Positions 37,025-63,800 of a stretch of DNA of 64,000 nt are shown piece after piece. Numbering within the stretch: position 1 is the first letter of the stretch; the number at the start of each line of letters is the position of its first letter. The stretch comes from Proteromonas lacertae. Taxonomy: Eukaryota. The position numbers were made by a program, and so were the translations under genes. The notes beneath the pieces are model-generated. The model had not been told where the DNA came from. It searched no databases and saw only the letters and a program-made list of their open reading frames with translations. Location: the NCBI GenBank assembly GCA_002245135.1, contig NGBS01000305.1:1-64000 (forward strand), read 5' to 3'.

Positions 37025-40000
37025 ATGTCCATTTCTGAGACTGTAGAATATAAATACTATGTCTCCACATCAATACCGTTGAAGATACAAGTATAGATAT
37101 ATCTGTTATTCTGATTATGAATAGTTAAAACCAGTGGTAATGGAGATTCCACTTTGTACTGAATCAGATCGTTTAAGTGATTATTATGTAAATATCCAAT
37201 TAGCTTATGACAATGTTCCAGTATATGCTGTTTCAAAGAGGTATTGTTTAATCAAATATAATATTTTATATAGTGTAAGAATGCATTTAGATAGTGAAGG
37301 TATAATTAGTCAAGATGAAACAATCGTATTACCAATTAAATATCGAGATTTACTAAAAGGAACTACTTTGGTATATATATTATATTATAATATCAATTAA
37401 AATAGTTATTGGATATATATAGAAACAATAGTGAAATAGTAGCACATGGAATCTTACCTTTATTCGATGATCACAGTAAACTACGTACTGGCTATATTAA
37501 AGTCAGATTACTACCACATAGATGTATATACAAACCAATATTAATATAAATAGATCCTGATTTAAACAAGTGTGTAATAACAAATGATCCATATGAATGT
37601 GTCAGAATAGCCCAAGACTCCTTTGAAAGTCGTCCAATGAACCAAAGTGCGACTTGGCTCGACACAATCGTCAGTAAACGACTACACACTCTAATCGATG
37701 AAGAAAGAAAATATTCAAGTGAAATGATTAAAACTCTAAGTGATTTGAGTGATATTGATCCATTAATCAGTCGTAAAGAGGATATGAGTATAACTATTCA
37801 ATTCCCATCATTCCCGTATCCAGTAATATTTGAAGAACCAACTTATGGTGATACAATAGTAACTAAACATTTAGGTAATGGATGGATTGAATATAAAGAT
37901 ATTAGAAGTGATAGAAATATTTATATGAATCCAAAAACCAACGATATACAGAATATATATCCAGAAACTGCATTTAAAAGTGAAAGTGATTTAACAGGTG
38001 CAATTATACCAAATAATAGTGAAAACAATAATAATATAAATACAACAACAAAATATTATAATGAGAATTTATTTATAATCAATGATCCAACAGTTGAAGA
38101 GAATAATCCAGCTGAAAAAAGAGCACATAAAGTAGCTAGAGGTAAATTGAGTCAAAATTCATCTACAGATAAGAATTTAAAACCAAATTTGAAGGAAAAA
38201 ACTGAATTGATGAATATAATAAATAACCCCAAAAGTAGAAAGGATTTGAAAGAAGAAGAGCAATTATTGATATGGAAATTTCGTTATTATTTAATTGATT
38301 ATAAGAAAGGACTAGAAAAATTCCTTTATTGCGTTGATTTTAATGATGAAAATGAAGTAAAAGAAGCAATTAGTTTATTGTATCAATGGAGATTTGTAGA
38401 TATAGACGATGCTTTAGTTTTACTAACAGATGAATTTAGGAATGAAATAATAAGAGAATATGCAATAAAAATCATAGAAAAATCATCTGATGAACAGTTA
38501 TTATGGTTTTTATTACAATTAGTTCAAGCTTTAAGATACGAGCCAAACCTTCAAGGTGATAGATTACCTCGTAATATTGAAGATTATAAAATTGAATTAT
38601 GTCCAACACCACTTGGTAAATTTTTAATCACACGAAGTAGTCAATCTTTAGAAATTGCTAATTATTTCCACTGGTATTTGATGGTAGCAATGGAAGATAA
38701 GAAATATAGTGAATTATATGAATATATCCATTCATTATTTTTAAAGACATTAGATGAAACTGATATAGGACGATCTATTAATAGCAGTTTAATGTTACAA
38801 CAGGAGTTTGTAGGAAAACTGTTTTCATTAGCTTTAAAACTACAAGAAAGTGGTGGAAAAGCTGCTAAAAAGACACCAAAATTGATAGAATTAATGGAAA
38901 CTGAGATAGATTTAAACTATCCTAAAGGTGTGTGCTTTCCATTATTACCAAGTTTATATGTAACAGGTGTTAATACAAAAACTGCAAAAGTATTTAAAAG
39001 TGCATTAAGTCCATTTTCATTACACTTTTTAGTTGATTCTAATAGATTACCAGTTGATTTAGGATTGAGTTATTTCAGTGATAACAGTAAAGAAACTGAT
39101 AAATGTTGTGATTGTGAAATGAAATTCAATTTTTGTATGTGCACAAAATGTAAAATATGTGATAAAATAGTAATGATTACAGATAGACATCATTGTAGAT
39201 TATGTGGTTGTACATTATGTGATGATCATTTTAATAAAGAAAAAAAGATATGTAGTGATATAGAAGTTTGTTATATATTTAGAAAACCATCATTTCCAGT
39301 GATGGTGAAACTAGGAGATGATGTAAGACAAGATCAATTGGTTATACAAATGATTACATTAATAGACCAATTATTAAAGAATGTAAACTTAAATCTACAC
39401 TTAACACCATATCGTGTAATAGCAATAAATAGTAATGAAGGCTTGTTAGAGTTTGTTAGACATAGTCAACCTGTTAGTTCAATTGAAAACTTCCAAACTC
39501 ATTTGAGGAAGTATAATCCTGATCCAAATGGTGAATTTGGAATTAGTCCAAAAGCGATGGATGTTTATATCAGAAGTTGTGCTGGTTATTGTGTTATTAA
39601 TTACCTATTATCTATTGGTGATCGACATTTAGATAATATCATGTTATGTGAAGATGGACATCTCTTTCATATTGATTTTGGTTATGTATTTGGTCATGAT
39701 CCTAAAATGAAGAATCCTGTAGCTATGAGATTGACAAAAGAAATGATAGAAGGTATGGGTGGTGCTACAAGTAATAATTATAATAATTTCAAAAGATTTT
39801 GCAGTCAAGCCTTTTTGGAATTGAGAAAGAGAGCTACGTTGTTGATCAACTTGTTGAGATTGATGCTGGATGCTGGAGTTCATGATTTAACTCCAACTTC
39901 CTTGAGAAAGATCGAAGATAGATTTAGACTAGACTTGTCAGAGGAGGATGCTGAAAGTTTAATCTATGGAATAATTGATGAAAGTGTAAATGCTATATTA

Positions 40001-40051
40001 CCTGGCGTTTTAGAAGCATTCCATGCTTTAGTAAGAGATGTAGCTCGATAA
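37025..40051 (+). CDS. VPS34: Class III phosphatidylinositol 3-kinase with an internal FYVE-like insertion
   Basis: LIWKFRYYL, LLQLVQALRYE, ANYFHWYL, FKSALSP, GDDVRQDQL, SCAGYCVINYLLSIGDRHLDN, FHIDFG. 5' C2-region exons start at 37025. Confidence 0.93.
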
Positions 40052-40237: not shown

Positions 40238-43200
40238 ATGTTGGTTATGAAGATAATTATTGCTTTAATAGCGATAATTTTGGTATCAGGAAGCTGTCCT
40301 CAGAATTGTAGTGGACATGGTAAGTGTAAATCTGATGGAGTGTGTGAGTGTAATGAAGGAATAACAGCTGGTGCTGGTGCTGGTGCTGGTTCGATGTACA
40401 TGGGAGCTGATTGCTCAATTAGAGTATGTCCTAGTGGTGATAGTTATGGAGCTGTATTGTTTGAAGGTTTGCCAAATCCTGATCAAAACTACCGTCGAGC
40501 TTTAGAAAGTATATTGGACAGATCAGTAGAAAGGAGAAGTCGAGAATTGGGTATTGCTGCTACTGAGATCAAACAAGTAAGAGATAATTTTTACCAAGTG
40601 AGTGGAGTAGAATATAAATTATTAAGTAAAGGTCAAGGTGAATTGATGTGTTATGATGAGTTAGGAGAATATAAAGGCAAAGTGAAAGTGTTTGGAAAAG
40701 CAAAAGAAAGTGATGATTATCTAATAAAATTACCCTCAACAATATCAAGTGATAATTTCTTTGAATATGACTGTCGAGTTAGTTTTGTCTATAATGATAT
40801 GAGTTTACTTAATCCAGTGGTATCTACAGAAGATACAATAACATGGGATATAAAAGATATACTTGATAAAGTAGATGTTAATGTTGATATTAATGATGTA
40901 TATTTTGCATGTATAAAAGATGGTGTTTTAACTAAATCTACAACTGATACAGCATCATCAAGAAGATTATTACAGAATAATAACAATATTGAATTTAAGT
41001 TTACTACTTCCAAACTTGCTGATGGTTTGAAATGTTATTATTTAGGTAAAGTTGAAACTGATGATACAGATGGATCAAAATTACTAGCTGCATCTGATGT
41101 TAAAAAACTCTCATCCTTTTTATTGAAAGATGGTGTAGATATTGGATTACCAAATGGAAAGAAAATGTATGAAATATACAAAAGTAAAGTTGTAACAGAT
41201 AATTTATATGCATCATTGAATTGTTATAATAAATATACAAATGATTTAATTGGTAAAACATATTTAATGGGATTTGATACTACAAAACATATAGCTAAAG
41301 TAGTATATGATTTTGATGAAGATGTTTATTATGATCCATATGATTTAAAATGTGAAATAATTGAGAAATATAATGAAATAACCTCGTTATTACCAATGAA
41401 AATAACAACAACAGATGGTTCAATAGTAAATAAAGGAATTGAAAGTGTTGTAACAATAGCTGAAGGTGATACTGTAGAATTAGGATGTTATAATCCCAAG
41501 AGTTATGAATTTACAACCTATTTATATACTTATACTTACAGGAACATTTAAGATAAAACCAGCTGATCCTCCATCTAGTAGACGTAGATTAGCAGATGAA
41601 CCAAAACCAGCTAAAGATGATATTTGTTATATTGCAGCTGGAAATGATGGTATTGTAAATGCCAAGACAATTACAACTGCTACTTCATTCTTGCAAAAAG
41701 CATTTGAATATTAACTGGATGTAGATAATAAATATAAATATTATGATGAAAATAGTATTGTTTATTTACCTGGTGAAAGAGTAGCTAATAACATTTACAT
41801 ATTAGAGAATATCACATATATTACTGGTTCAAGTGGTGCATTAATAGAATGTAAAAATGAGAATAATAATGTGATAGAAATACAAATATTACAAAAAATA
41901 AAACAAGAAGGAAATCCATTAGCAGATGTAAAATTGAATAAATATTATGTAAAATATAATAAAAACAAGATTGGAAGTGGTGAATATAAATGTGAATTAG
42001 TTCATTTAACTGATGATTTATCATTATATGAATTATCAAAACCAAATAATTGTAATGCTGCTACAATAAAAGATGGAACTCCAAATCCAAATGCAAAATG
42101 TGAGTTAAAATTAACATCAATGAGTTATTTCGTAACTGTTTTACCTGAAAATAAGAAGATGGATCTTACTAAAGATAATGATGTTAGTATTGCTTGTTCA
42201 AGAGGTGATTCAATAGAAATGTATGATTATGAATATAAAGCTCCAACACCTGATGCTAATCCTGCTAGTAGAAGATTAGCTGATGAAAACACTCCTGATA
42301 AATCTGAAAATGTTGTATTAACAATAAAAGAAGCTTCGACTATTGTTCCATCTAATAATGATATTTGTCATATTATTTCTTATACTCCAAAAACACAAAC
42401 ACCAAGAAGAGTTAGAAGATTAGCTGATCCTGCTGATTTGACTGCTTTAACAGGAAGTGATTATGGTAAATCATTATCAAATTATATCTATAAACCATCT
42501 GAAAATATCACAATTGATATTGGAAAAATAAATCATAAAGTATATGAAGTAAATAATATCAATATAATACCTGATGGAATTGATAGTTATGTTGGAGTAA
42601 TAAGTTGTAAATATGGTAATAATGAAGGAAATGGATATGTGATGGGTAAAAGTGATAATGGATATATGATATTATTTGATTTTATTAATGAGAATTCCAT
42701 TCCTTTAATCAATAGTTATAATTGTAAATTAGAGAGTAGTTATAATGATTTATCATTATATTATTCAAGTGTGATAAAAGGTCAAGGTGATAATGGATTA
42801 GGTGAATGTTATAAAGGTCAATGTGATTTAAAATGGACAGGAATGGGAAAACTATTACCAAAAGTATCATTCACTGAAAAAGAAGATTGGTAAAACTACT
42901 GTTGACAACTTTGACTACAGCATCATCAACATTGAAATTTGCATGTATGAATAAAGCCAAGAAAGTTACAATTTATGAATATACTACAGCTACTAATAGT
43001 GATGGTATTATAACATTCCCAATAAAAAACGGATAGTAATTCTTATCCATTAATTGGTCATGTATGTAATATATTATCTGGATTTAATGGTGTTACTATA
43101 ACAGCAGATAAGAATAGTGATTATGAAATAAATCCACCAAATGGAGCAAAATTGACCACCAACATTAATGATTGAATACTGCCATTAGCTGGAATATATG

Positions 43201-46200
43201 TTTAAAGTAGAAGAGATTTACACCAACACCAACTTTCAATCGGATATTCAGTTTGTAAGAAAGAAGAAGGAGATGGTAAAACAGTATCAACTATAGTTGC
43301 TATATAATTATGGTAAGATTCGAGATAATGTGGTTGATAGTTATTATATTCGATATACTGATAAAGAAGGTAATGATCTAGCTAGTTTAACACCATCAGT
43401 TATTCCAACTCCTGAATTATACAGTTGTGGAACATTTACATATTATGAAGATTTTACATCAATAATAAAAGCTACAGTTCCTGTTGGTTGTACAGATACT
43501 GCTAGTTGTGGATTAACATTAACAGGTTATGATGAAATATTGAAAGATTTAAGATATGTGAAAGATGGAGATAAATATAAAGCATCATTTGCTTGTCCAT
43601 ATACTGCTGATAAAAATGAATTGAAAGTATTTTCATATACATCAACTGATGGTTTAAGCTTTACGACTGCAGGAAGCGAATTCCCATTACCATCTTCTGA
43701 ATGTTCTTTATTATTAAATAAAGATGGAAAAACAATAATAAAATTAGAAGATAGTGAATTGACTAAATTACCTAAAATCATAAAAACAAATACTTATAAT
43801 ACTCTAGTAATTCATAATACTGTTAATGTTGATTTGAAATTAACAAGTGAATTAGGAATAAGTAAATGTTATAATAAATATTCAAATGAATATGTTGGAT
43901 ATGCAATATCCTATGGTAAAGTGAAAGATAATGAGAATAATGAATATTTAATTGGATATAGTGTTGATCCTCCAAAACCTGAATTATATAACTGTAAATC
44001 GTTTGAAGAATATTCTGATTTATCAATGTTAATAACATTCACAAAGCCAGATGGATGTACTGCTGCTAATACCTGTGAGATTACCTTAACTGGTATTTTG
44101 CCATTGATAAAGAATTATGTTGATACTGCTAAAGTAAAAGACTATACTGTAGGATGTGAAGTAGGAGATGAATTATTAGAATATGTATTAACCACAAATA
44201 TAGATGATAGAATAACACCTACACCAGCATCAGGAGGATTCTGCAGGAAGAATACTTGCTGATAATGATTTAGTGTTATATATAAAGAATAAAGGTAATA
44301 CTGAAGCTGAATATTGCTAGGTAAGATTAATAAGATTAAGAAATGTCATTTATTAATGAATGTAAAACGGTAAAACAATTAAACTAGCAGAAAGTGATAT
44401 GAGTAAATTCCCATATTTATTAGATTCAACAGCAGCTACTCCAATATATACTTACTATAGTATGAATTTGCCTTTAACTAGTTTACCAGGTAAGATGACA
44501 TGTTATAAAGAAGGTTCAATGATAAAGCTGAATTATTAGTTTATTACAAAGTAAAAGATAGTAACTTTTACGAAGTAAAGAATACTATTACTGATTTTAG
44601 TAGATTATAATTGTAAAGATGTAGTTCAATTAAATGATTTATCTCTTGTTAATCCCCTAAAAGGTAAAGTGTGTAGTGATAAAACCATAATTTGGACAAA
44701 GATGAGTAGAATATTAGGAAAGATAGGGTTTTACAAATCAAAGAAAGATAGTGAAACAATAAATACAAAATTTGTTTGTATAAAAGATGTCAGTGTTAAT
44801 TATGCAGATGCAAGTTACACATATGAAGATGCATTTGTTACTGAAGATAAAGATATTGTATTTACTTTAACACTAACAGGTGGTGAAACTTCAATTGCCA
44901 CAGATGAGGAATTGTTATTTATTATCATCATTTGATGGTGATATTATTACTAATGATTTCTAAGAGTGATGTTGGTATGAGGTTTGGATTAAAGGCTGAT
45001 ACAACTAACTTACCAACAGCTACAGCACCTGTAACAGTTGAATCAATTGGAGATGGTGGAGTATTTACTGTAACTAATGTTGATTATACACTCAATAATG
45101 ATATAATAATTAATCAATGTTATGATAGAGATACTCATACTTATTTAGGTGAATCATATGTATTGGCCTCCAGTCTGCAGCTGGTGGATATTATATTTAT
45201 TATTCGTGGATTAAAGATTCAGCATCACCAGCTGATTATGATTGTAGTGAAAGTGGAAGATATTCAGATATATCATTATTAACTGAAGTTAACTATTAGG
45301 AAGTACATCCTAAACGTAATAATGCACTTGCAATAACGGAAATATGGCTGATATTCTAACAGCAATGAAAATTACATCTGCTAGCTGCATATAATTTTGT
45401 TTGTATTAATTCAAAGAAAGAATTACATTTATATGAATATACCAGAGATAATACTAATAGTAATGTATTTAATATTAAAGCTGAAAGTGAAATAGTTCCA
45501 TATGTTAATGATAAATGTTATTTATTAGCTAATACAATAGGAAAACCAGTAAATTTATCTAAATCTGAATATGGTAAAAAGAATAATATATTTACTGATG
45601 ATCCAAATGGTCAAAAAGTAGAAACAACTGAAAAGAAAGTAGAAACTGTTGAACCAGAATCAATACCTGCTGAAATACCTAAAAGTGGAGGAATATTGAA
45701 ATGTTATGATAAAGAAAGTGGTGAATATGTTGGAACAATTGAAGTAATAGGTAAAAAGGCGAATGGTGAAGCCATAATCAAATATAATATTCAAAGTGGA
45801 AAGATGGATATTTCTGAAGAAGATTTAAGCATAGATATGTTTGAAACTGAAGTGGAAAGTATAAGTAAAGATTTGAGTATGAAAAATCCTCCAAAGTATC
45901 TTCAATATGTGAAAGTAATCCAAATCGATGTAAATTAATCTGGAAATCAATGGGTGATATTTAATTTGATCCTTTTAAACTATTGATGATGAGAATGAGA
46001 GAATTAGTAGAAAAACGATATTAAGTTGGCATGTCCAAATAAACCAGATGGTGTTTATAAAGAAGTAACATTTACATATGATGATGCTAACATTGGTAGT
46101 GATTTAGAATTAACTGTTAAGATATTACCTTCTGGTTTTCAGTTTATGCCAAATAGTCAATGTAATGCATTAGTTGATGGAGATGGAAATGAAGTTGATA

Positions 46201-47069
46201 TGACTGGTACTGAATTTTATAGTAAAGCAATGATTAATGATGAAGGACTTCCATTCTTACCATCTGATGAAAAGACAATTACAATAGGTAAAACACCTAA
46301 TAATGTATATCAAGCATTAATTACCACTTCAATAATTAAAGAATTTAGTACTGTATATTTTGCTAAGAATCAAATTCCTGTTCCAATTGATGGTTCAATA
46401 AAAAGTCAGAATTTATTAAGTCAAATATCTCTTGGAAGAACTGTAGAAATAACATGTACAGGTGGTAGTGGTAGTAGTTGCAGTGGAAATTCTGTAAAGA
46501 AAGTGATTATCGGAATAGAAAAAGATGATGATCTTTTAAAATCACCACGTTTGCTATTAGAAAATGAAAGAATATTAGCTGATTCACTTCCTGGTGTTGT
46601 ATTACAATTTGATGATTTAACAGGTTTAACAGCCGCAGCAGATTCATTCACTTTATCATTCCCCAAAACAGTTGGTGCTTCTCATTCCAAAATTGAATGT
46701 AGTGGTGTTGGAACATGTGATAGAGAAAGTGGTGTATGTAAATGTTATAATGGATTTACTGGTTCAGCTTGTGAAAGAATGAATTGTCCAAATAACTGTA
46801 ATAATCATGGAAGATGTATAAGTGGTAAAGAATTAACCGAAAAGTCAAGTTATAGTGGATATGGAAATGATGTAGTATTTGGTTGTTTATGTGATAGTGG
46901 ATATAGAGGAGCTGATTGTTCATTGAAAGAATGTCCAAGTGAAGTTAATAATGGTATAAAAGATAGAGATTGTAGTAATCATGGTTTATGTGATTATTCA
47001 GATGGAAGTTGTAAATGTTTTGATGGTTATTATGGTGAAGCTTGTCAACACACTGTTGGAACTGCTTAA
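40238..47069 (+). CDS. Giant mastigoneme-like (Ocm/Sig-type) EGF protein with ~9 internal repeats; many frameshifts (pseudogene or assembly errors)
   Basis: Signal peptide; N-terminal CPQNCSGHG..GADCSIRVCPSG; C-terminal HSKIECSGVGTCDRESGVC..CPNNCNNHG..GCLCD.GYRGADCSLKECP..RDCSNHGLCDY. The interior is broken into many ORF pieces. Confidence 0.7.
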
Positions 47070-55964: not shown

Positions 55965-56286
55965 ATGGCTATTGATAGAATGAAATAGATTTTACAAATG
56001 AGGATGAAGTTATGACACCAATATATATATAATTATTACAATAGTTGTCAATTAGAAGGAACTGTAATACCAATTTGTATAACTGATATTCAGTTAATTG
56101 AAGAGCATGAAAGAAGGAGTATTCATATGCTTTTAACAAAATTACGTTTGTAATAATGTAGAAAATGAAGATAAATAGTTCAAGCTTGATCAAACTCTAA
56201 ATATAATTCTTTAGAATTCTTAGTGTTTATTTTTGCCCAATTTGCTCAATCCAGTAAAAATAAAAGATGTATATTTTTAATTATTT

Positions 56287-59200
56287 ATGTGTAGGGCAAT
56301 GAAGAGACAAGTAGACTATACTTCCAAAAATACTAGAAAAGCTAAAAGAGCGAGAATAGCTGAAGGTATTAACAGTGAAAATGAGTTTGATAATTTTGTA
56401 GAAATCATTAATAGTTTGAGTCTTTGTGATGATGATGATAAATGTTTAAAATTTAGTGATACAGTGGATATATTTCAGTTTCCTCTAAGAAAAATTTATA
56501 TGAGAGGGTGTTATGAAGTGATGTTTAGAGACATATGTAAAAGTATGTTGTGTTATGACAATGTAGTGATAACAGGTCAACCAGGCATAGGGAAAACCTC
56601 GTTTATATATGCTTTACTGTATTTCATTAAGAATTTACGAATAGACTTTAATAAAACAGAAAAGAAATATTTATTAGAAAGAGAATTGAATAGAGAAAGT
56701 GAAGAAATAGAAGAACTAATAAAAGAATTAAATGTAAAATTTGATGAGAAAAAAGAATCACTAGAAAATGATTTATCAAGCATTGATAGTGTGATAAATA
56801 CATGTAATGTTCGTAAAGAAGAATTGGAAAAAGAAATCAAAACACATTGTGATAATCTAAAGAAGATGATAGTTAATGGTTGTATTAATATATATAATAA
56901 TTTATACTTAATAAAAAATAATAAAAAAAATTGCACATTGTACAATATCGATCAAAATAAAGATATAATACTATCAAAAGAAAAGATGCGTGAACATTGT
57001 CAAGAACGTGGATTATTTTATTTGGATAAAATTAACAGCAGTATGAGTAATATAAATACTGCTACATTTGATGTTAAAGATACAATAATGAATGATTTAG
57101 AAGAAATAGAAAATAAATATAAGAAAAAATCAATTCCATTAAAAGAAATGATTGAATTTTATATCTTAATTAAAAAGATAAATACTAGAATGATGAACAT
57201 AATCAATCTAAATTATTCAGTAAATATAAATAATGCAAGAAAGAGCAAATTAGAAAGTGATTTGGCTGGATTAGATGGTTTATATGGGAAGATTCGAGAC
57301 ATTATGAATATTTCAATGAATAAAAGAAAACAAATAACAAGTGGATTTAAAAAATGCAAAGAATATGAAGAAGAAGTAGAAGAATTAAAAGGATTTAATT
57401 ATTATTTCTTAGATGCTTTTACTAGAAGTGTTAATAAAAAAGGCAACAAAGTTACAATCAACATATTAAAAGATATATATATAGTGAAAGGGAAGAAAAA
57501 CGGAAAGAATGAAGCAATAGTATATCTATTCAAAAATGGTAAAGTTTCGAAAGTTCCAATTCAACCGTGTGATATAAATGATTCAATAATAATAGTGGAT
57601 ACATTTAATGGTACATTTGAAGGTAGAAATAAAATCATATCAATCAGTTCACCTGATCATAAAAATAATGACAAATATACAAAAAATACTACTAAAAAGA
57701 AAGAATTATATTTTGATTCATTAAATGATGAAGAAATTAAAGAATGGTTTGAAAAATGTATTGGTTTTGATGTTGATGTAAATAATGATAAATTTAAAGA
57801 GACATGTCAAAAATATGGTAATATTCCAAGACAGATTTACTTTCACTATTTATATGCAAAGAATTACAATAAAGATTATTGGAAATATTACACAGAATTA
57901 ATCGAAGGTGTAGTTGGTTGTACAAGATATAATGATTTTTTAAAGAATTATATGGATAAAGAGTATTTGAAGAAAGAAGATTCATCAAATATTTTATTAA
58001 AATATGATTTAGAAGAACAATATGATGAATATTTAGGACATAATATATTAACTCCAAAAGATCATTTAAAATTCGTTTCAGATGCTGTAGAAAAATATAT
58101 AGTTAATAAATTCTATCCTGTTAAAGATGAAACAGAATACCAAACAATAAAACAAAACATCGACACAATTGATGATGATGATAAATTTATGAAAAGAATA
58201 GCTATGAAACAAATAATAGCATATGAGTTAAGTACTGGAATTATTGAATTAGAAATGAATCGTAGGGATTGTAATGATGAAGTTACTATAATTGACAGTA
58301 ATCCTGATTTCAAATTAAATTCTGAAAAACATGTATCAATTCATTATCCAGTTGGTGCATTACATTATGTTTATTACATATTGGATGAAGAAAACTATTT
58401 TGATTTGATTATAAATGGAGTGTTTATAAAAATATTCTTAGATGATGAAGAATTTAAAGATGATGATGAATTAGGTTATATTGTTGAAGATGAAACAGAA
58501 GAAAGAATCAGAAAATCAATAAAAGTATCAATATATTATATAATATTTAATTTTATTCTAGGATTATAGTGAAGATAAAAAAGGCACATTCATGTATGCT
58601 GTAATAAAGAATTATAATCTCTATGCATATGATGTAAACTTTGTAATTGAACATTCACCAGATGAAAAACCATCACAATCCTCAGTAACAGAAAGAAAAG
58701 GAAGAGCAGAGAGAAAAATTGCAATAGAAGTTAATACAGAAGTATATGTAGATAGAAACACATTATTGATAATGAGAAAATGTTTCTATGATATGTTGAA
58801 TATTATTTGTAGAGATAAATTTAATTATGATAATCAAAGAAACTATTTGATATTTGGTCATTCTAAAATCGGAAAATCAGTATTATCACACCTTATAAGA
58901 GATTATATTCATGAACACTATAGAAATATTAGAATAGTCTATAAATATAATGATAATACTGTTTCTTATGTTAAAGAAAATTATTATTTTAATAAGAATC
59001 TTCATCCATATATTGTAATTTCTGATGGAGGAGTAATAGGTGAAGATGATTATGCCGATGCAAAATCAGTAATTCTATTAGCTAATCCATCTGAAAAAGA
59101 GTATAAAACTTTTCAAAGTAAAAGATGTCCATTGTTGATATATATACCACCATTTACAAAAGAAGAAGTAAATAAAGTAAAATTAGTTCAAGATGTAGAA

Positions 59201-60127
59201 CTAATTGCAAAAGTAGACAGTGGCATTTATGAATTCAAAGAGTTGAAAAAGAAATCTCTTATAATGAAGAAATATGATTTTTATAAAAGAAACACAGCAA
59301 CTAATGAAGAAGAATATTTACATAATTCTCATAAAGCTGTTTTAGAATTATATGATGAGAATTTTGAATATTATGGTGGTGTAATAGGAAACTATAAATT
59401 TAATGATGTTGAGATTAATAAGCTAATAGAAAGAATTGATGAGAAAATGATTGATGATATTCTAAAAGGTATTAGTAAATCATCATTATGTAAGACAAAT
59501 TATGATAATATACTAATATATGAGACATATGAAGATGATGTTACTAAATCTGGTAATCTTAGATTTATAACTGAGACAATCAGAGATTTGGTAATTAGTA
59601 AAAAAAAGAGAATTGATTGAAATGGCAGATGGAAGAGATTATGCAGGAAATTTGTATGATAAAATTGTATTATATTTGATGAAGAAAGGTGATAAATTTC
59701 AAGAGAATATTGTTAGAAGTATATCTGAAATGAATAGAGCAGATAAATGGTTGAATTTTAAAGTTGTTCCAACAAGTATAACAACAGATGCAGATTTAAA
59801 AAATGAAATTCAAAAATAAATTCCAAACATATCATGATGAATTTAAAATGCCTGTGATTGATTTAGGTTACAGACCTAATTTCCCTGATGTTGATTTATT
59901 TATTGGACCGATAGATATTCAAATCACAAAAAAGAAGTAATAAAGAAAATCCTGAAATGGGATTTAGCAGTAGAACAATAGGAAAATATCCAGAATGTAT
60001 CAAAAATATAGCAATAGAATTAAAAGGTAAAAATGCACATGATTTATTTAAATTAGCAGATGATAATAAAAGTATAATACATATTACATTCCAAGAATTA
60101 AAAAACTATGCTTACTATTTAGCATAA
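56287..60127 (+). CDS. Second Crinkler/RHS-like gene: NTPase B + NTPase A + REase-like motif (three frameshifts at A-runs in the 3' part)
   Basis: GQPGIGKT, SSPD, YGNIPR. A 37-nt intron at 58525-58561 joins in frame to GHSKIGKS, SKRCP, YGGVIG, LRFIT. After shifts at ~59600, ~59815 and ~59930 it reads GYRPNFPDVD...IQIT and runs to TAA at 60127. Confidence 0.75.
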
Positions 60128-60829: not shown

Positions 60830-63800
60830 ATAAATGGGACTCTGGCATAATGTACCATAGTCCCATTTATGTAAGGTTCCTACGGGATTCCTCCCAACAG
60901 GGTCTACTTCTCAACAGAGTCTACTTCCCTACGGGGACTCCTCTAAGCTATTTCTATACCTATCTATGAGACGATCTCCTACAGGTACTCCTGTAAGCTA
61001 TCTAGAAGTGTTGGTTACCTCGAGGTGATGATTCTAATCATGCTCTTGACTCTCCTTGCTACGCTGGTGACCTTGTAAGGGCTTTTAATTGAACCGTGGA
61101 AACCAATCGTGGAACCGGGAGTTTACAATTGTTAACTTGTTACCAATTGGTAACTTCGATAGACTTGAATAGTTGAAATCATTTACCTTGTGAAGTATAA
61201 ATGGATCCAACCCAAGCAACATCTCCATTGAATGATAAAGTAGTCATAGAACAAGACTCTTCCAGGGACTTCAATTTAGCTTCTCAACTATCCCAGGTAA
61301 GCAACTACACACCACTGGTAGAATCATCCTCCGAAGGTAAGGTCAAGAGATCACATAAGGAACTTCATAAGGCAGCTGAGGATCATCCAGCTAAGAAGTC
61401 ACGGGTCAACAAAGTTTATTTCATCGAAGCACTGCTGGAGGTGCCCAAGGAAGTGATTGATCCTAGCAGTATTATAAATGTACGTATTGCTATGTTCAGC
61501 TTTGCTTACTCCGCAATCGCAGCTCTTCATCATCATCAACTCAGTAAGAACGCAGCCACTGAGAATCCCGAGATGTACTCCAAGTACTTAAGCAAGTACA
61601 TCATTAACTACCAACACCCTATAGCAAATCCAATATCATCTTCCAGGCTCATCGACTCCTTTGAAGAGAACAATAACGTGGGTGTTCACATCTATCAATT
61701 GAAGGGATCGCATTTACGATTAGCCAGACGCAGTAGCTGTACTTTACCGATGACTTCTCCTGATCATATAAGTAATGCAGATGATGATGAACGTCTTACT
61801 AATAGAGATTTTGAAGATATCATTTATGATAATGCTAAAAAGTTAGTAAGGTTTAGGTTAGATGAAATAATTGATAAAAGACTTATACCTGTAGAATGTG
61901 TGCATATGAAGTTATTTAATTGGTGTAAATCGTTATATCAACATGGACCATTTTCAAGAAATAAACCTTTACATCAATACAGTTATGAATCAAATAATGA
62001 TGTTAAAATAATAGTTGATAGATTAAATAAAGCAATTGATGAATTATGTATTGCTTCAAATTATATACTTAGGAATAATCCATTTGTCGTGCTTCATCCT
62101 AAAGAAAGATTGAATGTTGTCAAATTAGAAAATAAAAGAATAATAAAAATACAAAAAGAGACAAAGGATCATACTCATCCATTTAATGAAGAAGATGATA
62201 AAGATATATATGATAGTAATAATTATGAAGCAAATACATCAGCACCAGCAAATTCATCACATAATGTTGTAGTACGTCAATCAGCTCAACCACATGCACA
62301 ACAACAACAATCACAAGATAATAATAATGATGATAATGATGATGAAGAAGATGATAATGATTTACCTGATGATCCTTATGAAGATGATCAAGGTAATTTT
62401 TTGCCTTTAGAAGATAATTCTATTCATGCACAAACAATTCAAGTATATAGTTCAAATGCAATAAATAAGATTAGAATTTTTATAAATAAGTTACTGAAAA
62501 CAAAATTTTGGTATATAACAAATCAGCAAGAAAGAACTACATTTTCAATAGCTGTATTAATATATAATTGTGTAACAGAATTATTTTACTTAAGCAAATA
62601 TAGATCACCTAGTTTAAGAGATGGTCATGCATATCCTGAACCTGCTGATTATGATAAAAGAAATATAATGGGTTTACCTTCATCTATTTCTAATGGATAT
62701 CGAATGAATTATATAGCAACAATTCAAAAAATATTAGAGTCAAATAATATAAGGGAAGGTCAAAGAGACACAAATCATTATGCAGATGCAATTATGTTTT
62801 ATATGAATAAATTAACACAAAAGAAGAAATATATTAGTTCATTTCCACCATTATTGCCAGTAGAAGAAGCATTATCTAGAGATTATAATGGAAGATATCA
62901 AGTTACAAATCCTAATAGAGGTAATGTAAATGTAAATTTTAGAAATAATGTTGAACAACAACCAGTTGTTCCACAATTACAATCATCTCAACAGCAACAA
63001 GAAGAAGAAGAATTATCTCCTATATCTTCATCATCATTACAAGATAATCGATCTCAAAATAATAATATAGATGATAATAATGAAGATACATATAATCTTA
63101 GTTATGATGATGACAATATAGCACAACCACCTCCTTTAGTTTCAAGTGATTATAATAATAATTCACCAAGAGAGGTATCACCAGTATATTCACCAGTAAC
63201 ACCACCATTAGCTCCTTATTCTCAACCACCACAACCACCACCATCATCACAACTATCAAATACAGTTCATCATTTTAGATTTGATGGTACAACAAATCAA
63301 GTTCCTTATTCGTCTATTTTGCATATAGGAATAATGGGAATGATGATGAAACTAGTGATACAGATGTTTCTGAAACAGAATGGAATGATGAATATATTTT
63401 CCATTCACTTAAATTAAAATATGATCCAAATAGTAGTAATAATATAAATTATACAAAAATTGCTGATTTAAAACCTCCTACATTTGTTTTATATAGATTT
63501 AATGATGAATCCTAATGTAGTAAATAAACCTAAAAGGAATGTAAGAGCATTTACTCTGAAAGAATTATTACGTTATTATGCAATAGATTTATTTACTAAA
63601 GTAACTTATATATATGATATACAAGGCTATATGAATAATAAATTTAAAAAAGAAAAGATTGTAATAGTAAAAGATAATGTTCATTATGATAATTTTAAAG
63701 AATATGTAAAAAAATTCAATATTCAATTACCAATTAATACACCAGATATATCCATTTAATACATTAGATAAAAAATCACTTATGCTAAGATTATACGGTT

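Follow-up and report, generated by a model that had tools for sequence, protein, structure and literature searches.

The Vps34 encoded in the window (the whole 64,000-nt stretch of DNA analysed) carries, inside the N-lobe of its kinase domain, an insert that is predicted to be a FYVE-derived zinc finger. Vps34 is the universal kinase for PI3P production. Conservation and the nearest profiles support the FYVE-like module proposed in the initial annotation as real and coding; it is also conserved, and the finger was found to be common to this organism, Blastocystis and a few kin. The enzyme itself is a known Vps34; the finger variant is new relative to the literature searched.

ORF 37550-40051 (+) covers two domains of a class III PI3K, the helical and the kinase domain. 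Its best PDB match by phmmer was human PIK3C3 (E 3.6e-125), compared with only 3.7e-50 for class I PI3K, so that it lies nearer to PIK3C3/Vps34 than to class I/II enzymes; Pfam PI3_PI4_kinase matched with E 3e-51. The frame is open from the ATG at 37025 in two gene models. The 33-nt intron 37241-37273, which is in frame, is putative, proposed from its borders and its 12% GC, and reading through it would give 975 aa. Residue numbers of the insert and motifs refer to P0001, the translation of ORF 37550-40051 (+). The features of the gene are:

37025..40051 (+): Vps34 (class III PI3K) gene, 964-aa model from ATG 37025 with four introns
37091-37124, 37241-37273, 37371-37405 and 37524-37553 (+): Vps34 introns, 30-35 nt each
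37125..37397 (+): exons 2-3, encoding a portion of the PI3K C2 domain; Pfam PI3K_C2 E 0.013, below the cut-off, in a frame that contains introns
37871..37942 (+): weak candidate for a degenerate WW-like element, in the linker between the C2 and helical domains; Pfam WW E 0.14
38174..38755 (+): helical (PIK) domain; Pfam PI3Ka E 1.6e-44
38993..39037 (+): kinase P-loop (FKSALSP) and the strand running into the insert, aligned to human 612-626; strand present in the model
39038..39289 (+): 84-residue insert at the turn of an N-lobe beta-hairpin, where human VPS34 has 3 residues
39308..39682 (+): catalytic motifs Lys587 (39308), DRH (39620-39628) and DFG (39674-39682), aligned to human VPS34
40013-40051 (+): C-terminal stretch lacking the Trp of the membrane-binding helix, as in 39 long-loop relatives

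The catalytic motifs are all present (K587, D691-R-H and D709-F-G). The C2-helical-kinase architecture was found, PI3K_C2 scoring above the cut-off in the relatives P0019, P0033 and P0139, and no Pfam match to a Ras-binding domain was obtained in the window Vps34. The WW-like element had no WW match in the PDB search; a clearer stretch of this kind occurs in the finger-less relative P0163 (Pfam WW E 0.2), and others were seen by eye at a similar place in P0019 and P0033.

Elsewhere in the window, a run of ORFs at 40238-47069 (+), probably forming one very large multi-exon gene, encodes a protein that is secreted or exposed at the surface. Its N-terminus is signal-like, EGF repeats of teneurin type lie at either end, and RR(R)L recurs as a motif, perhaps at cleavage sites. 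Three long adjoining ORFs at 3345-10608 (-) (1135, 780 and 507 aa), whose sole match was a ubiquitin C-terminal hydrolase, are probably one giant gene. The long ORFs at 56281-59620 (+) and 61201-63417 (+) (762, 352 and 738 aa) gave no Pfam match at E 0.001.

The phmmer alignment to human VPS34 ends at D496/E626 and restarts at S581/K630, leaving 84 residues in the window protein against 3 in the human enzyme. The insert site is the turn between the post-P-loop strand and the strand of the catalytic Lys587, and both strands are present in the predicted model. The initial annotation had reported about 85 extra in-frame residues; the insert was borne out and each of the motifs quoted was present in the translation, the figure itself being 81 extra residues (84 replacing 3).

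Base composition of the insert is of the coding type (GC 0.27/0.36/0.11 by codon position), and only 1 of 20,000 shuffles of it stayed open in frame. The insert is coding, since ten Vps34 clusters share this 12-Cys module and its position, among them named Blastocystis proteins with only about 30% identity across the finger. In the nearest cluster, P0002 (88% identical), the whole insert is kept in 12 of 12 members with mostly conservative changes, and in P0002 itself 72 of the 84 insert residues are identical to those of the window protein.

The insert, or its Cys-rich middle, could in principle be intron sequence that is readable in frame by chance. A candidate of this kind was located:

39135..39170 (+): 36-nt GTATG...AATAG intron look-alike, in frame, rejected; its codons carry four conserved Cys

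Its GTAT...ATAG borders and its size resemble those of the four introns of the gene. However, the four Cys encoded there recur in distant relatives, and at the would-be acceptor relatives read K-M-V or K-N-V, where AG is not possible, so that they cannot encode the acceptor. Conservation is at the protein level and conservative in kind, in all 12 members of the P0002 cluster as well as in distant lineages, and the Blastocystis proteins P0046 (976 aa on a 3,260-nt contig), P0146, P0139 and P0140 read through the entire finger. An intronic origin, which the initial annotation had named as a possible objection, is therefore extremely improbable.

The Blastocystis ORFs P0332, P0333, P0337 and P0341 lose the frame within the finger, the behaviour expected of an unspliced intron. 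In the NMH/DL-type Blastocystis lineage there is an apparent intron within the finger-coding sequence, just before HHCR; the window gene has none at this place. Read-through of the finger in P0046, P0146, P0139 and P0140 indirectly implies a spliced mRNA that contains it. Gene models with RNA-supported introns were chosen in the paper listing strains NMH and DL, according to the part of its text used here (PMC12129017), and the NCBI proteins P0139 and P0140 presumably derive from that annotation.

Within the insert, the following elements could be distinguished:

39038..39103 (+): variable linker into the finger, 22 residues including YFSD; length and sequence vary among relatives
39104..39142 (+): N-terminal four-Cys knuckle C-x2/4-C-x6-C-x-C (C519, C522, C529, C531), candidate third zinc site
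39149..39271 (+): FYVE-derived core (C534, C537, C549, C552, C557, H560, C568, C574), last pair C-x5-C
39182..39199 (+): D-R-H-H-C-R, a remodelled R(R/K)HHCR pocket motif, with [RK]HHCR in 10/10 clusters

A canonical FYVE domain has eight zinc ligands in four CxxC pairs. The putative core ligands in the window finger are seven Cys and one His, with four further Cys on the N-terminal side, and the family as a whole follows the pattern C-x2/4-C-x6-C-x-C, then C-x1/2-C-x7..12-[RK]HHCR-x-C-x4-C-x2-[C/H/D]-x7..12-C-x5-C. The twelve ligands suggest three zinc ions, and by this count the insert would be a three-zinc finger with the knuckle as its third site.

The four extra Cys had initially been assigned to the membrane-insertion loop. 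This assignment was not borne out: in the alignments to Pfam, Vps27, EEA1 and RUFY1 the FYVE core begins at C534-x2-C537, at the canonical distance from HHC, and C519, C522, C529 and C531 thus form an N-terminal knuckle, which by alignment occupies the place of the WxxD segment and is not an enlarged membrane-insertion (turret) loop. The knuckle is conserved in 11 of 12 aligned rows. Its pattern was detected in 31 of 364 proteins examined, namely 30 Vps34 or Vps34 fragments and one finger-only fragment (P0296), and in none of 53 canonical FYVE proteins. The YFSD of the linker was rejected as a true WxxD; Blastocystis-type copies do not keep this look-alike.

At the sixth FYVE zinc ligand (39227-39229), His was observed in the window, Asp in P0002 and P0296 and Cys in the other seven clusters, a distribution that points to repeated ligand exchange at this position. 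Finger identity to the window was 16/56 for P0019, 18/56 for P0033 and 16/53 for P0139; in the closer P0002 and P0152, the finger (47/56 and 39/56) can be compared with the kinase segment (105/120 and 88/120, respectively). Outside the Cys and HHCR positions the finger is poorly conserved.

The initial annotation had proposed a HMMER search of the insert with the FYVE profile. The profile did match (E 0.0021, 18.6 bits, profile positions 8-45), with a score that missed the gathering threshold of 27.8, as did every member scanned whole; five of eight finger-bearing relatives scanned in this way gave 13.5-20.2 bits and the other three had no listed match. Once the inserts were cut out, Pfam FYVE matched seven of eight (best E 5e-6) and FYVE_2 one of eight (E 0.52). 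A profile built from the insert found PI3P-binding FYVE structures first among PDB sequences, Vps27 with E 5e-5 and EEA1 with 1.5e-4. No FYVE is listed in the precomputed domain annotations of the finger-bearing proteins; standing below the Pfam threshold, the finger is left out by automatic annotation.

An AlphaFold2 model of residues 170-833 (helical and kinase domains, 102 rows) had a mean pLDDT of 90.3 and a pTM of 0.89, with 81-94 per block in the insert. Modelled by itself from a 12-row alignment that left out canonical FYVE sequences, the insert reached pLDDT 92-96 over residues 11-70. The structural check suggested at the outset therefore predicts a confidently folded domain. The top nine Foldseek rows were FYVE entries (best E 0.04, TM 0.40-0.45), none of them at E <= 0.001. 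In VIA-align the first five rows were FYVE or FYVE-type, with rmsd 2.4-4.0: Hrs had the highest score (Z 4.3, rmsd 4.0, 58 aligned), followed by endofin (4.0), RUFY1 (3.9), CARP2 (3.6, rmsd 2.4, 49 aligned) and EEA1 (3.6). RIM and Slp4 scored 3.4, and rabphilin and the Rubicon RH domain 3.0. With RIM and Slp4 within 1 Z of the best match, the fold alone cannot separate lipid-binding from protein-binding fingers. By sequence the insert is FYVE-derived, and its modelled shape is FYVE-like but much changed.

The distribution of the finger was analysed from the span between the P-loop and KxGDD, measurable in 122 of 127 Vps34. The canonical span of 29 residues was found in 81 of the 122 (animals, fungi), the others ranging from 32 to 230. 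Long loops are usual in stramenopile-type Vps34, but these are of low complexity. It had been conceded beforehand that such an insert might be common in stramenopile Vps34. Alignment gave a different picture: 8 of 8 named oomycete proteins were long-looped but Cys-poor, with 0-2 Cys in the loop span of each, and the finger was absent from all named Vps34 examined from oomycetes, animals and fungi.

Among the 122 measured Vps34, the Cys-rich finger occurs in P0001, P0002, P0013 and P0033. By motif it is also present in two of the five unmeasured ones, P0019 (Blastocystis sp. Blastoise) and P0046, whose cluster includes Blastocystis sp. NMH and DL. Searched with HMMER, 1.84 billion representative sequences yielded 536 matches; of the best 150, 146 were measurable and four had at least 8 Cys (P0152, P0153, P0033, P0019), to which the partial P0155 is added. 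The insert profile found 66 proteins, 13 with the finger (12 with Vps34 flanks, P0296 being finger only), and the remaining 53 all carry Pfam FYVE. The initial protein search on the insert region had yielded one finger-bearing cluster among six matches. Taken together, ten clusters carry the finger: P0001, P0002, P0152, P0019, P0033, P0046/P0139, P0153, P0300, P0155 and P0296. A metagenome scan gave 30 loci with best segments of 29-48% identity and no close relative, and an ESM Atlas search gave no usable match.

A tree was computed from an alignment stripped of the insert (31 rows, 518 columns, five rows being fragments under half filled; another tree had 56 rows). Eight finger-bearers form one branch (87/85), in which the window lineage is sister to the Blastocystis group (97/96); by this tree the window organism is a relative of Blastocystis. 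The enclosing 13-row clade (99/99) also includes the finger-less P0154, P0156 and P0158, and within it P0155 pairs with the finger-less P0163. Because of this pairing, strict monophyly of all finger-bearers was rejected (nine rows held together, AU test, p-AU 6e-6). The simplest reading of the tree would be one gain at the base of the 13-row clade, then losses.

A C-terminal membrane helix is predicted in the window Vps34, but the (Y/F)W pair is missing, there being no Trp. The Trp is absent from all 39 long-loop Vps34, finger-bearers included, and kept in 74 of 84 others (a few unmeasurable spans among the 84). Its absence is thus a trait of the clade and not the sign of a broken gene. The C-terminal helix of Vps34 is described as membrane-binding in a portion of bioRxiv 2023.09.28.559894. 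Loss of Trp from such a helix could make an extra anchor useful, a circumstantial argument; the 39 proteins are relatives and amount to one event, a single data point and no correlation. Among oomycete and other long-loop Vps34 (P0020-P0047), the low-complexity hairpin inserts of the oomycete-type proteins end in a conserved basic-hydrophobic RMINYL-like segment, which could be an amphipathic membrane helix.

The lipid pocket was compared with that of 103 distinct canonical copies from 53 FYVE proteins, a reference picked by profile similarity and biased toward HHCR. The first motif position is Asp or Glu in seven of the ten finger clusters (Q, S and K in one each) and in 0/103 canonical copies. 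WxxD was found in 0/10 clusters against 57/103 canonical copies, RVC in 0/10 against 79/103 and the C-x5-C last pair in 10/10 against 2/103. The net charge of the window finger is 0 over 60 residues. In passages of PMC3017826 on canonical FYVE domains, the first Arg is the residue that reads the 1-phosphate, and replacing it causes a substantial drop in PI3P affinity; other phosphoinositides are kept out by the WxxD Asp and the second His; and zinc is not coordinated by the [RK], H, H and R positions of the motif. For EEA1, an excerpt of PMC8491906 gives a 6-fold loss of PI3P affinity for R1400A (RVC) and a substantial loss for W1349A.

Lacking WxxD, the full R(R/K)HHCR and RVC, and lying below the Pfam cut-off, the insert is not a canonical FYVE domain. 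A canonical FYVE is its probable ancestor, and it may act as a weakened version of one; taken by itself, such a domain would serve poorly as a PI3P probe. The product sensing first proposed for this finger is weakened by the loss or charge reversal of three PI3P-pocket features and by the sub-threshold Pfam scores of all members scanned whole, whereas HHCR is kept: four residues that are not zinc ligands are invariant in a finger only about 30% identical, which argues for a ligand with phosphate. On these sequence features PI3P binding is plausible.

Vps34 is described as C2, helical and catalytic domains only in the parts of PMC3024228 and PMC6358306 devoted to its layout. The window enzyme shares with Vps34/PIK3C3 this layout, the P-loop, the catalytic Lys, DRH and DFG, and differs from it in the predicted folded finger at the 3-residue turn and in the absent C-terminal Trp. 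With canonical FYVE domains (Vps27, EEA1, Hrs, RUFY1) the insert shares the order CxxC ... [RK]HHCRxC ... CxxC and has them as nearest profile and fold; apart from the pocket differences given above, it deviates in the His or Asp sixth ligand in three of ten clusters and in the added knuckle. Fab1/PIKfyve also combines a phosphoinositide kinase and a FYVE domain in one chain, with a canonical FYVE at the N-terminus (sections of PMC3823935). That domain is remote from the catalytic one and its ligand is the enzyme's substrate, while the present finger is degenerate and inside the catalytic lobe, and PI3P would be the product of the kinase. Class II PI3K with PX and other proteins with FYVE and PI3_PI4_kinase likewise join a PI3K-family catalytic domain to a lipid-binding domain. 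In a 2010 survey, the portion used here (PMC2837644) counts two proteins with FYVE and PI3_PI4_kinase (one protist, one virus) and 38 PX proteins; its FYVE table (file 2) has no PI3Ka entries and so no Vps34-type architecture. No report of the insert was found in the open literature searched, by title or abstract, and 'vps34' is absent from the main texts of the Blastocystis genome papers PMC12129017 and PMC5608401.

At slightly under an even chance, the finger acts as a weak, kinase-tethered sensor or anchor for a phosphoinositide headgroup, most likely that of PI3P. In this view, a hairpin loop that was already able to expand would have received a FYVE domain a single time, close to the base of the clade; the four-Cys knuckle would have replaced the WxxD segment, and some branches would later have lost the finger. 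The retained [RK]HHCR pocket might still bind the phosphate of a lipid, though with an affinity too low for targeting by a free domain. Other subunits already bring the kinase to the membrane, and low affinity might then suffice once the complex is docked; the finger could lengthen the stay of the kinase on PI3P-containing membrane, or sense the product there. It might act in cis as PI3P feedback loops act in trans elsewhere, where feedback on Vps34 runs through separate proteins, Rab5-Rabex5-Rabaptin5 and WIPI2d (as outlined in part of PMC8624279). In favour of lipid reading are the [RK]HHCR kept in all ten clusters and the PI3P-binding FYVEs found first by the insert profile. Against it are the loss of WxxD and RVC, the acidic first position in seven of ten, the zero net charge, fold matches that are modest (Z 4.3 at most) with RIM and Slp4 within 1 Z, and the close relatives P0154, P0156, P0158 and P0163 that have no finger.

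FYVE-type fingers of rabphilin, Slp and RIM bind proteins, through which they recruit or regulate. Like them, the present finger might recruit the kinase or regulate it by binding a Rab GTPase, Vps15, some other subunit or a phosphopeptide. In favour of this, the lipid pocket has lost features and had its charge reversed, the knuckle adds a new conserved surface, and the RIM, Slp4, rabphilin and Rubicon RH fingers, at Z 3.0-3.4, are not far from the best score of 4.3. The fingers of rabphilin, Slp, RIM and CARP2 (Z 3.0-3.6) resemble the insert in having a FYVE-like fold without the full lipid signature; the insert differs from them in keeping HHCR and in its negligible match to FYVE_2, found in one of eight inserts against seven of eight for FYVE. 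Rab-binding FYVE-type fingers are not known to carry [RK]HHCR, and a protein-binding role leaves this invariant motif to be explained. Vps34 is regulated mainly by Rab and Vps15 contacts, in the sections consulted of bioRxiv 2023.09.28.559894 and PMC8624279, which favours such a role; overall we regard protein binding as somewhat unlikely. The finger could also be a structural passenger, a FYVE that landed in a tolerant loop and was kept for folding or for packing on the kinase, with no ligand. In many Vps34 of stramenopile type the loop accommodates unrelated low-complexity sequence of considerable length (spans of 57-230 against 29), close relatives do without the finger, conservation is low outside the Cys and HHCR positions, and packing would agree with the pTM of the insert-containing model. 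Against this explanation stand four invariant non-ligand pocket residues, an acidic first position that recurs in seven of ten clusters, and a finger conserved about as well as the kinase segment in the comparisons with P0002 and P0152; we consider it improbable.

Returning to the weak, tethered sensor or anchor, a bolder form of it would have PI3P feedback wired into the Vps34 of Blastocystis and its kin: a three-zinc FYVE derivative, a 12-Cys finger type missed by current profiles, would read the enzyme's own product and amplify or limit PI3P patches with no separate effector. We hold this to be doubtful. The finger is a zinc-finger type that stays under the Pfam threshold. Blastocystis is the commonest eukaryote of the human gut, according to the portion of PMC12129017 cited, and in it the finger is a feature absent from the human enzyme. 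If true, a folded, lineage-wide domain inside the catalytic lobe of Vps34 would be a new way of regulating this kinase, and if the finger reads PI3P, nature would provide, within one polypeptide chain, a test of product feedback in the identity of endosomes and autophagosomes.
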